Of a stretch of DNA of 64,000 nt, positions 51,448-55,275 are shown one piece after another (positions within the stretch are counted from its first letter, which is position 1; every line of letters begins with the position of its first letter). The position numbers and the translations under genes are program-made. A model generated the notes under the pieces. It had not been told where the DNA came from and did no database searches. It saw only the letters and a program-made list of their open reading frames with translations. Source of the DNA: a virus. The stretch lies in the UHGV virus genome UHGV-0084588; one strand, written 5' to 3'.

Positions 51448-51993
51448 ATGAAACAAATACAGTTAACTGATCACGTTAATGCGTTTAAACACTTTCTGGA
51501 TAACGCGGGTATAAAACCCGGCGAACAGACAGACGCATGGACTGCACGTGTTTATGGAAGTATTGGCAAAGTCTGTGAATCCACGACAACACACGACGGG
51601 TTGTTTGTTGCTAAAGCAGTGGGCATCGCCTTGTGGGATATTGCTGCTCTAGTTTACGTGATGAATAACGGGGATTTACGTCCCCTTGAAAAATCGCTAC
51701 ACCGACTACTAGCCATTAAGAAATGGAAAAACGAACATCCTGAGTCAATCGCGGTTACGTTGATGCCAGAAGCGGTACTTGCTATCAAAGCGGTACGAAG
51801 TTGTACCGCTCGCGCACAAATGGAGCGGCGTCTACATCTCGCGACGCTCTTTTATCAATTGGCCAGAATTGTAAAGATGAACGGCCTAATCTTCGACCGG
51901 GTTCTACAGAACGGACGTATAAGTTGGACAGAAGAACTAAGTAGTTCTCCGTTCTATACAAAACTAAAACTTAAAGACATTTTGAAGGGTTAA
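51448..51993 (+). CDS. Hypothetical protein (181 aa)
   Basis: Track ORF. Confidence 0.4.
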   Translation: MKQIQLTDHVNAFKHFLDNAGIKPGEQTDAWTARVYGSIGKVCESTTTHDGLFVAKAVGIALWDIAALVYVMNNGDLRPLEKSLHRLLAIKKWKNEHPESIAVTLMPEAVLAIKAVRSCTARAQMERRLHLATLFYQLARIVKMNGLIFDRVLQNGRISWTEELSSSPFYTKLKLKDILKG

Positions 51994-51994
51994 C

Positions 51995-52303
51995 ATGGAA
52001 AACTATTCGGGTTGGGCAATTTCGCAGTGCATTGGCTATTCTTTACGTTCTTTAGTGCGTACACTTTATAACAAAAACTCAGGCGAAACTATTACACCAC
52101 AGCTACTGGGCAAATTGGAAGTTGAAGTTAACCACAAATTAAAACAGTTACTCGACAGCCACGTAAGAACAATGCGTTGGGAGTTCTTGCTACGCGGTAA
52201 GAAGCCAACAATTACCGTTGTAGCAGAAGGCAGTGAAATCGTACTGCAGTCCAACGCAGACCTATTTGAAATTTTAACTGAACTCGAAAAGGACAAAATC
52301 TGA
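51995..52303 (+). CDS. Hypothetical protein (102 aa)
   Basis: Track ORF; stop overlaps the thyA start (TGATG). Confidence 0.4.
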
Positions 52304-53337
52304 TGAAACAGTATTTAGCGTTAATGCAAGACATTCTGGATAACGGTGTTGTTAAGAAAGACCGCACAGGTGTAGGGACACTTTCTGTATTCGGCCGTCA
52401 ACTACGTTTTGACCTGAAAGAAGGTTTCCCATTAGTCACTACGAAAAAGGTTCACCTGAAAAGTATCATTCATGAACTGTTGTGGTTCTTAAACGGTGAC
52501 ACTAACGTGAAGTACCTGCAAGAGAACGGGGTAAAAATCTGGAATGCATGGAGTGATGAAGAGGGGAACTTAGGGCCAGTTTATGGTAAACAATGGCGCG
52601 AATGGCGCGACTGTAAAGTTGTGGAGTGCCATGACGTAAGACGTACACAACAACTGATGCAGCGGGGTTACAAGTATATTGGGAATATGAAGGAAGATGG
52701 TACGACGTATTTGGTTTATGAAAAACCACATGACCAGATCAGCAAAGTTATCCAACAACTTCGTGAAGACCCTGACTCCCGCCGTATTATCGTTAGCGCC
52801 TGGAATGTAGGTGACCTGGACGATATGGCACTTAATCCATGCCACAACTATTTCCAATTCTACACAACAGAAATGACGTTGCTTGAACGACTGGATTGGT
52901 ACGAAGCAAATGAACCGGAAAAATTTGCGAACGCGCCACTTATTAATCACGAAGATATTGATGATGAAGAACGACTTCATGAAACTTTAGATCGTGAAGG
53001 TATCCCTCGTCGTAAGCTTTCATGTTTTTACATGATGCGCAGCAACGATGTCGCATTAGGAAAACCGTTCAACATCGCGTCATACGCTCTGTTAACTCAT
53101 ATGGTTGCCCAACAAGTGAATATGGTTCCCGATGAGTTAGTTTATAGTGGGGTCGATGTGCATTTATATCTGAACCACATCGATCAAATAAAACTCCAGT
53201 TGACTCGTGAGCCGTACCCGTTACCTAAATTGGTTATTAAACGTAAACCCGAATCTATCTTCGACTACAAATACGAGGACTTTGAAGTAGTCGGTTACCA
53301 ATCACACCCACACATCGCCATGCCTGTCGCGGTGTAA
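52303..53337 (+). CDS. thyA: Thymidylate synthase (ThyA-type) with two insertions
   Basis: MKQYL..MQ..LD.G...[93 protein letters not shown] match recalled E. coli ThyA almost residue for residue; catalytic Cys in PCH retained. Confidence 0.9.
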
Positions 53338-53366
53338 ACTACCACTTAACTAAAAGGAATGATAAA

Positions 53367-53813
53367 ATGTCTAAAACTCATGTTGACTATAACATCGTAG
53401 TAGAAGAATTATCAAAAGGTTTAACCGATCTGGATTCTAAAGATAATCCGTTTACTGATCGTTATGGTCCCAATGCCTTATCTGAATTTCGTACTATCCG
53501 CTACGGTACAGGCAGGCAGACAGGACTTACAGACTTCGGTGTCGAGTTAGCTAAGAACCATAAAGGGAAGGTGTTATTCGTTAACCCAAAAGGGTTCTTA
53601 GAGGACGATGTGCTATTCCGTTTGGGTCTCGAAGACTTGCCTGAGAATATCACGCAAATCATTGGTTATCAGATGGGTACAGAAAAAGAAAAATACAGTC
53701 TTGTCATTGTAGACGACGCTGGGGTTTTCTTTAGCATGTTCCGTTACATGAAGTTTTTCCGCTTACTAGCAAACTCAGTAACTAAAGACGTCGTAATACA
53801 TTTAATGGGTTAG
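53367..53813 (+). CDS. Hypothetical protein (148 aa)
   Basis: AAAAGGAATGATAAA-ATG. Confidence 0.4.
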   Translation: MSKTHVDYNIVVEELSKGLTDLDSKDNPFTDRYGPNALSEFRTIRYGTGRQTGLTDFGVELAKNHKGKVLFVNPKGFLEDDVLFRLGLEDLPENITQIIGYQMGTEKEKYSLVIVDDAGVFFSMFRYMKFFRLLANSVTKDVVIHLMG

Positions 53814-53832
53814 TTGGCGATAAGGAAAAATT

Positions 53833-54006
53833 ATGTTGGGCGATGTTCTTAATTTCACAATATCGTATTTCGAGCCGAAGAAGTTCCGTACTTTTAACAC
53901 ACGTTATTGTAAAGGGCCGAAAAAAGGGCGTAAACGTTTCCAAGTAATCCAACTTGATTATTCCAAGTTCCTTGAAGCTAACCCATTCGAGAAGGAGGAA
54001 CAATGA
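53833..54006 (+). CDS. Possible small basic protein (57 aa)
   Basis: TAAGGAAAAATT-ATG; Lys/Arg-rich; below the track cutoff. Confidence 0.25.
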   Translation: MLGDVLNFTISYFEPKKFRTFNTRYCKGPKKGRKRFQVIQLDYSKFLEANPFEKEEQ

Positions 54007-54185
54007 AGAAGCCATATTTTCATAACCTCAGATTCTTTACAGGTACTCTATATTTTATTGGCTACAACCGCGTACGTAAGGGACCTGGTAAATCGAAAGT
54101 ACGCACTGTGCAGTATAAAAAGGCAATGACAGCGTCAGTTCCATTACGGATGGGCCTGCTTCTGTCTCACATCCGCCATCGTTAA
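54003..54185 (+). CDS. Small basic protein (60 aa)
   Basis: Strong RBS GAGAAGGAGGAACA-ATG; ATGA overlap with the upstream small ORF. Confidence 0.3.
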   Translation: MKKPYFHNLRFFTGTLYFIGYNRVRKGPGKSKVRTVQYKKAMTASVPLRMGLLLSHIRHR

Positions 54186-54227
54186 ATCAAAACTGCTAAC
54201 ACCTTTGTAAGAAATTTGGGAACTAAA

Positions 54228-54371
54228 ATGACTGAAGAAGTTAAAGTAGAAACCGTTAAAGAAACTGATGAATTTGCAATCCCTGGCTTAGACCCGGAAG
54301 CGACCGTAGAGAAGGGAGCCGACCCGACCACGGAAGACGATAACTGCTCAGGCGGGGCTTGCAAAATTTAA
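54228..54371 (+). CDS. Possible 47-aa acidic peptide ending CSGGACKI
   Basis: GGGAACTAAA-ATG; MTEEVKVETVKETDEFAIPGLDPEATVEKGADPTTEDDNCSGGACKI; followed directly by terminator 54379..54418; preferred over the antisense 60-aa track ORF. Confidence 0.3.
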   Translation: MTEEVKVETVKETDEFAIPGLDPEATVEKGADPTTEDDNCSGGACKI

Positions 54372-54378
54372 CAGTTCC

Positions 54379-54418
54379 TGGGGTGCTTATGTAGCACCCC
54401 TAATCCTTATTCTTTTTT
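54379..54418 (+). terminator. Intrinsic terminator
   Basis: GGGGTGCT-TATGT-AGCACCCC followed by a T-rich tract. Confidence 0.65.
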
Positions 54419-54441
54419 TGTTTAAACTAATGGAGTTTAAA

Positions 54442-55275
54442 ATGGGCGAACGTTTTGACATCAACACTATTTACAACATCGTAGTTAATCCTGGTCAGCA
54501 CCTGGAAGAAGTTAACGCGCAACTGCGCGCTCTGAATGAGAATTCAGTACAGTTCGACGCTATTTACACAATTGGTGTAAACCCTAGTACCAACCGTATT
54601 CGTGTAGAAGGTAAACGCCACACCGGTAATCAAGAACTGGATATTGAAACGATTGTAGCGCCTATTAAGCTTACCGATGCCGTTTATAACGGTACGGTAA
54701 TGCATACAGAATCTGTTCTAGTTTGCACGATCGCAAAATGTGTAAAACTCGTTAAAGGTTGGTCTAAAGAACGTGGTATCCTTGACAACGGTAAAGTGGA
54801 AACACAAATCACGAAGTTCTTTGAAGAGTTTGGTGAAATCGCAACAGGTATCAGTAAAAACAAACCTGAACTGATCATGGATGGTATTGGTGATGCGTTG
54901 GTGGTTCTGGTAAACATCATCGAATTAGGGGATGCGTATTCTGGTCACCTTACAGTGGCAGAAGACTGCATCGAGTCTGGTCTACGCTTAAACGTGGAAG
55001 ATGTAGCTGAAGTTGAAGAAAATTTAAACAACGCTGGATACCCACATCAACAATACCTTCGCGCTATTGAAAGTTTTGCCACAACCTTTATGGAAGGTAA
55101 AGATCATGGTTTCGATTTCGTTAGCCTGGGTTTAGCCCATCTTGCTCGTATCGCCTTGTATTATAAACTGGATATTCGTCATTGCTTCTCTTTAGCCTGG
55201 CATGAAATCAAAGACCGTAAAGGCTATCTGAACGCCGACGGCATCTTTGTAAAAGAAGCAGACTTGGCGAAATAA
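54442..55275 (+). CDS. MazG-like NTP pyrophosphohydrolase (putative), with N-terminal extension
   Basis: EEFGEIATGI...DGIGDALVVLVNIIELGD resembles the MazG EExxE...EExGD metal-binding helix pair; ATG at 54442 after GGAG. Confidence 0.45.
   Translation: MGERFDINTIYNIVVNPGQHLEEVNAQLRALNENSVQFDAIYTIGVNPSTNRIRVEGKRHTGNQELDIETIVAPIKLTDAVYNGTVMHTESVLVCTIAKCVKLVKGWSKERGILDNGKVETQITKFFEEFGEIATGISKNKPELIMDGIGDALVVLVNIIELGDAYSGHLTVAEDCIESGLRLNVEDVAEVEENLNNAGYPHQQYLRAIESFATTFMEGKDHGFDFVSLGLAHLARIALYYKLDIRHCFSLAWHEIKDRKGYLNADGIFVKEADLAK

Follow-up and report, generated by a model that had tools for sequence, protein, structure and literature searches.

We find that the gene encodes what, by its sequence, is a genuine and apparently functional thymidylate synthase of the classical type, and that it very probably serves as the normal folate-dependent dTMP synthase of a jumbo phage related to SPN3US and Goslar, an enzyme that carries two peripheral modules typical of its clade. 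The window, by which we mean the whole 64-kb stretch of viral DNA that was analysed, is jumbo phage DNA: among its genes are those for large structural proteins of the virion, for an SbcC-like protein and a UvsX-like recombinase, and for a ribonuclease. The features on which the argument depends are collected in Table 1; residues of the Escherichia coli enzyme are given with the prefix Ec.

Table 1. Features of the thyA region, by position in the window
Feature	Position	Strand	Basis or remark
Upstream ORF, putative, 102 aa	51995-52303	+	TGA stop overlaps the thyA ATG by 1 nt (TGATG); no Pfam match
thyA, classical (ThyA-type) thymidylate synthase	52303-53337	+	344 aa plus stop; ORF listing, Pfam, NCBIfam, AF2, Foldseek
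Insert A, residues 103-142	52609-52728	+	Boundaries from phmmer against PDB; in place of E. coli loop 103-108
RGY motif in insert A, residues 121-123	52663-52671	+	Sequence
Codon of the catalytic nucleophile Cys180 (E. coli C146), motif NPCH	52840-52842	+	Column invariant in three alignments
Insert B, residues 190-236	52870-53010	+	Boundaries from phmmer against PDB; replaces E. coli residue 156
Codon of Arg196, nearly invariant Arg of the ER motif, insert B helix 1	52888-52890	+	At least 90% conserved
Codon of Asn257 (E. coli N177), dUMP-versus-dCMP specificity determinant	53071-53073	+	Asn kept in alignments

The family assignment is supported at several levels. The protein covers the Pfam profile PF00303 from end to end (positions 1-266 of 266; E = 7e-111, 370 bits against a threshold of 24.3) and passes the cutoffs that NCBIfam has curated for three of its thymidylate synthase equivalogs, namely NF002499 (409.9 vs 405), NF002497 (395.1 vs 327) and TIGR03284 (339.1 vs 108). 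It falls outside a further equivalog, NF010393 (PRK13821), which describes the Burkholderia-type ThyA, with 228.6 bits against a cutoff of 576. When compared with E. coli ThyA by phmmer against PDB sequences, it resolves into three collinear blocks, residues 1-102 pairing with Ec 1-102, residues 143-189 with Ec 109-155 and residues 237-344 with Ec 157-264; over this core alone the two enzymes are 68% identical, and the length arithmetic is consistent, as the 264 residues of the E. coli protein plus 80 make 344. A sequence-only reading of the window had described just this, a ThyA close to that of E. coli broken by two in-frame insertions, and the alignment confirms both parts of the description: the insertions measure 40 and 47 aa, the strings quoted for them correspond to residues 102-143 and 192-237, and their boundaries had been placed correctly to within one or two residues. 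In accordance, the AF2 model of the protein adopts the ThyA fold (pLDDT 95.3, pTM 0.93), with Foldseek TMt values of 0.94-0.96 to thymidylate synthase structures of E. coli. The annotation as thymidylate synthase is already present in relatives and in public assemblies that hold an identical protein.

In the alignments R21, E58, W80, W83, Y94, R160/R161 (Ec R126/R127), C180 (Ec C146), H181 (Ec H147), R246 (Ec R166), S247 (S167), D249 (D169), H287 (H207) and Y289 (Y209) are all kept, the phosphate-binding set Ec R21, R126', R127', R166 and S167 is found complete, and the C-terminal PVAV is retained. The role of N177, likewise conserved, in nucleotide specificity has been described (PMC8670742). 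The sole notable change at a key residue is Ec Q165, which is Met245 in the window and recurs as such in about a quarter of related sequences. Thus the earlier statement that the catalytic residues are intact holds for every key residue apart from this one glutamine. Together with other substitutions close to the active site, the change of Q165 to Met is unusual for a cellular ThyA, a point that weighs against the preferred reading.

What, then, are the two insertions? Structure prediction had been proposed as the means of placing them, and the AF2 model, run on an alignment of 42 diverse long-form ThyAs, gives an ordered module in each case, A being beta-alpha-beta-beta and B helical. Insert A provides 40 aa where E. 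coli ThyA has 6, a net gain of 34. DSSP assigns strands to residues 101-108, 124-131 and 134-143 of the model and a helix to 112-120, all at a pLDDT of 96-98, and insert A is predicted to form an ordered mini-domain, which would sit at an indel-tolerant loop, Ec 103-108. Eukaryotic thymidylate synthases, to judge by the human sequence, presumably carry an 8-residue insert at the same site. The module has a solved counterpart. With residues 85-165 of the window protein as the query, the top match of phmmer among PDB sequences is the ThyA of Burkholderia thailandensis (PDB 3v8h), where query residues 89-163 align with residues 105-179 without a gap across the whole of insert A, RGY facing RGF (E = 6e-10). 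The Foldseek TMq of the window model, which is 0.74 for the insert-less E. coli thymidylate synthase and rises to 0.79 for 3v8h, agrees with this gapless alignment. We define the long form at site A by at least 25 aa at Ec 100-110 together with the pattern D-x-[KR]-[VI]-[VI] ... RG[YF], and the window protein belongs to it; alignments show insert A to be common to SPN3US, Goslar, Caitlin, Parshik, Erwinia phages, 201phi2-1, Viktualia, Turkey3 and 3v8h. Given that insert A is also present in free-living bacteria, a purely phage-specific role for it is disfavoured.

Insert B is a different matter. It puts 47 aa in the place of a single residue (net gain 46) and is predicted to be an ordered, helical excursion from the tip of the beta-hairpin at Ec 155-158; the model has helices at residues 193-203, 205-209 and 222-231 and a softer loop at 211-220 (pLDDT about 67), and the hairpin that insert B prolongs is built of strands Ec 147-156 and 157-169. 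The strand that follows directly upon the insert reads KLSCFYMMR and corresponds to Ec 158-166, KLSCQLYQR. The octapeptide LSCQLYQR was designed against the monomer-monomer interface of human thymidylate synthase (PMC8041318), and because the returning strand corresponds to this interface peptide, we infer that insert B arises at the border of the dimer interface.

The edges of insert B are conserved and its interior is not. Among 37 diverse sequences the entry motif FQFYT-x-E-[LM]-[ST]-x-x-E-R and the exit motif L-D-x-x-x-[VI]-P-x-R-x-LSC recur, and the residues equivalent to R196 and P235 of the window are conserved in at least 90%; the window itself reads TTEMTLLER at the entry (189-196, counting from T189) and LDREGIPRR at the exit (229-237). 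A long form at site B, for which we require both motifs and 25 aa or more at Ec 155-158, is therefore present in the window protein. Between these edges neither sequence nor charge is constant among the homologues, and the length ranges from about 25 to 80 aa. The second insertion had been described as a largely acidic segment, and for the window this is so: with its flanking core residues (51 aa) the segment has a net charge of -8 and ranks first in acidity among 59 homologous inserts of at least 30 aa. The homologues average only -1.8 (SD 2.9), however, and acidity as a conserved property of insert B is rejected.

In contrast to insert A, insert B with short flanks has no match among PDB sequences, nor is it seen in the Foldseek matches examined, and at site B alignment offsets give 3v8h only about 2 extra residues. 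A profile of the insert-B segment was also run against species-representative bacterial and archaeal genomes, where at least 578 thyA loci were confirmed. Among the best 80 of these cellular loci the long insert B was not seen, the 95-aa segment spanning 147-174 nt, which corresponds to between 0 and about 9 extra residues. Insert B in its long form thus looks essentially phage- or metagenome-specific. A separate search with the insert-B profile yielded mostly metagenomic 'thymidylate synthase' fragments of 165-185 aa; in the one examined (L006) the gene is spread over three frames and has no intron match, which is probably frameshift or assembly noise.

How common is this architecture? A tblastn search of 50,697 phage records returned full-length, single-piece matches of 58-65% identity and about 1,017-1,059 nt from SPN3US-like Salmonella phages, Proteus phage 7, Goslar and many Erwinia jumbo phages. 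In a direct alignment SPN3US, Goslar, Caitlin and Parshik carry the two inserts where the window protein does, and both, with their shared motifs, are found in the Pseudomonas phages 201phi2-1 (gp350) and Viktualia. By structure, too, the 201phi2-1 thymidylate synthase, which covers both inserts, is the best viral match (Foldseek against BFVD; TMq 0.92, rmsd 2.3). Single-insert forms exist as well: in the alignments Shewanella phage SXP01 and Prevotella megaphage Lak-B2 have insert B without A, and Escherichia phage Turkey3 and Xanthomonas phage XaC1 have insert A without B. The thymidylate synthases of T4-like and T5-like phages have neither (tblastn spans of about 819-873 nt; 0 and 0 for the td of 44RR2.8t).

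Beyond the phage records, phmmer against 1.84 billion cluster representatives retrieved 15,624 thymidylate synthases. The best 150 representatives at 50% identity were aligned, together with the window, to an E. coli-based HMM, and in this sample of 151, which is biased towards the query, 99 sequences are longer than E. coli ThyA by 25 residues or more at site B (Ec 150-162); the same is true of 45 at site A (Ec 100-110) and of 33 at both, and many also have 30-95 aa inserted at a third place, in the small domain (Ec 61-99). Given these counts and the single-insert forms of Turkey3, XaC1, SXP01 and Lak-B2, the presence of A and that of B are uncoupled, and the notion that they make up one obligatory composite domain is unsupported. 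By these comparisons there is a large and diverse clade of long-form ThyAs, mostly of jumbo phages, in which the inserts of the window are standard. The sequence-only reading had implied that the insertions are novel, and this part of it does not stand: the segments are common to a ThyA subfamily that takes in SPN3US, Goslar, Erwinia phages, 201phi2-1, Viktualia and dozens of metagenomic clusters at 50% identity, and insert A extends to 3v8h. In the literature searched we found no description of a long phage ThyA form with two or three modular inserts.

The way in which the inserts vary is informative. Across 120 near-identical alleles from public assemblies (94-100% identity) insert A has a mean variability of 0.020 and insert B one of 0.029, against 0.013-0.053 for core segments, a pattern by which purifying selection acts on both inserts within the clade of the window. 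Between phage genera, on the other hand, they are only 17-47% identical, as compared with 70-82% for the cores. Structured, maintained and fast evolving, they fit peripheral modules. The core is strikingly host-like: compared over the core only, SPN3US and Parshik reach 77-78% identity with E. coli ThyA, equal to that between E. coli and an Aeromonadales ThyA, and the enterobacterial jumbo-phage cores group beside the ThyAs of Enterobacterales and Aeromonadales. Recent recombination with a host thyA was considered as the source of this likeness and rejected; at residues identical to those of E. coli the same codon is used in 43% of cases by the window (38% expected) and in 46% by SPN3US (41% expected), an excess no higher than that of one phage against another. 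A single origin with differing rates and an ancient exchange of cassettes are both possibilities for how a core of gamma-proteobacterial type came to carry the inserts of very distant phages.

The surroundings of the gene point to a lineage of its own. The window shares about 73% nucleotide identity with SPN3US and Asesino over small parts only; in a megablast search of the phage collection thyA itself had no match, and the 20 kb around it showed only 73% identity over 13%. By this divergence the window's phage is a lineage distinct from the SPN3US, Goslar and Erwinia phages. Upstream, the overlap of stop and start codons by one nucleotide suggests that the 102-aa ORF and thyA are co-transcribed and translationally coupled. 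The neighbours of thyA that were scanned hold no Pfam domain apart from a weak MazG-like match at 54418-55275. The genes that lie downstream share 13-20% identity when the window, SPN3US, Erwinia phages and Goslar are compared, and a conserved neighbouring partner gene was rejected, as the downstream ORFs have no detectable homology between lineages.

Given established ThyA chemistry, Cys180 would attack C6 of dUMP, 5,10-methylene-THF would supply the one-carbon unit and the hydride, and dTMP and dihydrofolate would be released, the latter to be recycled by the phage's own DHFR. A tblastn search with E. coli FolA found no DHFR within the 64 kb of the window; the gene is annotated in a closely related complete element of 222 kb (NZ_CP173450.1). 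Genes for DHFR, thymidylate synthase and thymidylate kinase have been reported in SPN3US-like phages (PMC6614189), and jumbo phages have DHFR together with thymidylate synthase (PMC7824862). By analogy with PhiPA3, in which a GFP fusion of thymidylate synthase is kept out of the phage nucleus (bioRxiv 10.1101/2021.04.26.441357), the enzyme is likely to act in the cytoplasm. Neither insert is likely to change the chemistry. They would represent two independent, ancient and structured peripheral modules, neither recent nor unique, which between them define a widespread long form, and their most likely effect is to brace the fold or the dimer and to give the enzyme a larger surface; insert B may also provide a surface for docking.

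Does insert B do something more specific? Its nearly invariant Arg and Pro, and its retention from Lak megaphages to nucleus-forming chimalliviruses, suggest a selected function more specific than decoration. As a functional module of phages only, insert B might give the enzyme a property absent from that of the host, for example insulation of the homodimer against the very similar host subunits or docking to phage DHFR or other enzymes of dNTP synthesis; its absence from the sampled cellular thyA genes and from the solved structures matched, the near-invariance of these two residues and its retention from Lak to chimalliviruses argue for this view, which we nevertheless regard as rather unlikely. 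A related proposal, which takes up an idea of the sequence-only reading, concerns both inserts, namely that they are docking or regulatory modules which recruit ThyA to a phage dNTP-synthesis complex or bind a partner such as DHFR. It is attractive in that jumbo phages and megaphages are the preferred carriers of the long form and the enzymes of T4- and T5-like phages are short, that insert B is not seen in the sampled cellular thyA, that R196 and P235 are conserved and that thymidylate synthase travels with DHFR in jumbo phages (PMC7824862). Yet insert A also occurs in the ThyA of free-living Burkholderiales, no adjacent partner gene is conserved, the downstream neighbours being as little as 13-20% identical, the interior of insert B is highly variable in sequence, length and charge, and T4-like phages do without these inserts. 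On balance recruitment to a complex is possible and rather unlikely.

The position of insert B invites a second proposal. In ThyA, an obligate homodimer, Arg126' and Arg127' contribute across the dimer interface, and a phage subunit 68-78% identical to that of the host might form mixed dimers with it; insert B could reshape the interface in such a way that the phage ThyA pairs only with itself. The core is indeed host-like (68% identical to that of E. coli in the window, 77-78% in SPN3US and Parshik), insert B appears phage-specific, and KLSCFYMMR, the equivalent of the interface peptide LSCQLYQR (PMC8041318), lies right after it. Against this, many phage ThyAs with a host-like core lack insert B, including those of T4-like phages and Turkey3, and insert B is also found where the core is far from any sampled bacterial ThyA, as in Lak-B2 (48-50%). 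We consider insulation of the dimer, which is reached by inference, improbable.

Could the protein be a member of the ThyA family with a different activity? Some ThyA homologues of large phages are dUMP hydroxymethylases (PMC8989533), and a pyrimidine hydroxymethylase acting on dUMP or dCMP in DNA hypermodification would be in keeping with the weak MazG-like gene nearby and with the change of Q165 to Met. The residue at Ec 177 is Asn and not Asp, however, which rules out the dCMP type. We know of no sequence diagnostic for a dUMP hydroxymethylase, and this subtype is excluded only indirectly: the protein scores above the three curated thymidylate synthase cutoffs, its core is 68% identical to that of E. 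coli ThyA with PVAV, W80, W83, Y94 and H147 kept, no hypermodification genes are present among the neighbours scanned, and the related element has a gene for DHFR, as SPN3US-like phages reportedly do (PMC6614189). A hydroxymethylase is thus very improbable. That the inserts are remnants of mobile elements, such as a mini-intein, an in-frame intron or the scar of a homing endonuclease, is hardly credible even though GIY-YIG ORFs interrupt thyA in related phiKZ-like and Erwinia phages and the GC3 of insert B is low (0.255 against 0.46-0.50 for the core), since the ORF is continuous, inserts of 40-47 aa are far below intein size, as the sequence-only reading had rightly maintained, and on their own match no Pfam or PHROG domain, no Rfam match to an intron or other RNA lies within 51500-54500, and both inserts are predicted to be ordered parts of the enzyme and are themselves conserved at the protein level across deep lineages. 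A foreign composition of the inserts is unsupported as well, their GC being 0.41-0.42 against 0.43 for the gene, with only the GC3 of the 47-codon insert B standing out.

The preferred reading, a normal dTMP synthase with peripheral modules typical of its clade, makes this gene one of routine nucleotide metabolism, and its modest value lies in a long form of a much-studied enzyme for which the literature searched gave no description. If insert B does mediate dimer specificity or the assembly of a complex, it would show how phages customise a housekeeping enzyme that otherwise resembles that of the host.

Among the closest known systems is E. coli ThyA (264 aa; PDB 2tsc, 1tys and others), with which the window protein shares the fold (TMt 0.96), the catalytic and ligand-binding residues and the C-terminus. 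The E. coli enzyme differs in having neither insert and in having Gln165 where the window has Met, and synonymous sites between the two genes are saturated, which argues against recent exchange. Others are the ThyAs of SPN3US (Seoulvirus), Goslar and the Erwinia Machinavirus phages, which are annotated as thymidylate synthases, measure 339-353 aa and carry the same two inserts; they are 58-65% identical to the window protein overall and 71-75% in the core but only 17-47% in the inserts, and insert B of the window is unusually acidic in comparison with theirs. The thymidylate synthases of the 201phi2-1 gp350 and phiKZ gp235 type (about 457 aa) have both inserts with the same motifs and, unlike the window protein, a further one, about 110 aa long, within the small domain (Ec 61-99). 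In several phiKZ-like phages and in Erwinia phages of the RisingSun type thyA is split by a GIY-YIG endonuclease ORF, whereas the window gene is unsplit. The ThyA of B. thailandensis (3v8h), a cellular enzyme, has a homologue of insert A of the same length with RG[YF]. Finally, T4 Td (286 aa) and the enzymes of T4- and T5-like phages are phage ThyAs too, often encoded beside DHFR, but they have neither insert A nor insert B, and any insertions they carry lie elsewhere; Td has surface insertions of its own, proposed to mediate complex formation, and it was for T4-like phages that a dNTP-synthesis complex was originally proposed.

The ThyA cores of the enterobacterial jumbo phages SPN3US and Parshik, compared with the inserts left out, are 77-78% identical to E. 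coli ThyA, as close to it as the ThyA of an Aeromonadales bacterium. On the other hand, the inserts of enterobacterial jumbo-phage ThyA carry motifs that are common to phage enzymes with only ~50% core identity. Given that synonymous sites between enterobacterial jumbo-phage thyA and E. coli thyA are saturated, any sequence exchange would be ancient. Insert B, one of the segments that the window enzyme carries in addition to the E. coli protein, has a GC3 of 0.255 versus 0.43-0.50 in the other four thyA segments, a difference that may or may not be meaningful in a stretch of just 47 codons, many of them for Asp, Glu and Asn; its total GC (0.411) is close to the 0.433 of the gene.

Comparison of the window protein with 120 public alleles that are 94-100% identical shows that polymorphism peaks in the core close to the active site (residues 243-258) and not in the inserts. 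Alleles of this stretch include the variant CFFLMRSNDVFLGLPFNI, adjoining R246, S247, D249 and N257. Mosaic alleles are one possible source of this polymorphism near the dUMP site; relaxed or adaptive change is another.

The start codon of thyA shares one base with the TGA stop codon of a 102-aa ORF (TGATG, 52301-52305), an overlap which suggests that the two are translationally coupled. A Pfam search with the 102-aa ORF gave no match. Two genes 3' of thyA, a 285-aa ORF matches MazG at 17.6 bits (E = 0.0046), below the cutoff, which is 22; it may encode a dNTP pyrophosphatase tied to pyrimidine pool control.

Features and replicons considered with the window thyA
Feature	Replicon	Coordinates	Strand	Size	Remark
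102-aa ORF	window	51995-52303			upstream of thyA
thyA	window	52303-53337	+	344 aa	
insert B	window	52870-53010			
polymorphic stretch	window	53029-53076			
285-aa ORF	window	54418-55275	+		weak match to MazG nucleotide pyrophosphohydrolase
fragmented thyA	L006 (JGI metagenome contig Ga0620987_02441)	4495-5531			one fragment case inspected
circular 'plasmid'	E. coli 98232			221,873 bp	related to window
circular 'plasmid'	Enterobacter ludwigii			222,441 bp	related to window

At megablast level, the jumbo-phage lineage of the window has no counterpart in the phage collection. ThyA proteins identical or nearly identical to that of the window are encoded on contigs of ~220-225 kb in numerous assemblies of isolates of Salmonella, Shigella and E. 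coli, and relatives of ~222 kb have been deposited as circular 'plasmids' (NZ_CP173450.1, NZ_CP134650.1). Together, these records suggest that clinical and animal isolates carry a jumbo phage along, in a carrier state, by pseudolysogeny or as a phage-plasmid.

Top matches of the insert-B segment profile are 'thymidylate synthase' fragments of 165-185 aa (P0271-P0390). In the case inspected, thyA is scattered across three reading frames and has no Rfam intron match. A frameshift or an assembly artefact is the probable cause; less probably, this thyA is a genuine split gene. The long-form thyA of phiKZ-like Pseudomonas phages, and of certain jumbo phages of Erwinia, is annotated as two parts with a GIY-YIG homing-endonuclease ORF between them (hits H117-H141: T2P, U5, OMKO1, SL2, PA02, KEN51, RisingSun and Joad). 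This two-piece arrangement recalls the td intron of T4. The thyA of the window is uninterrupted.
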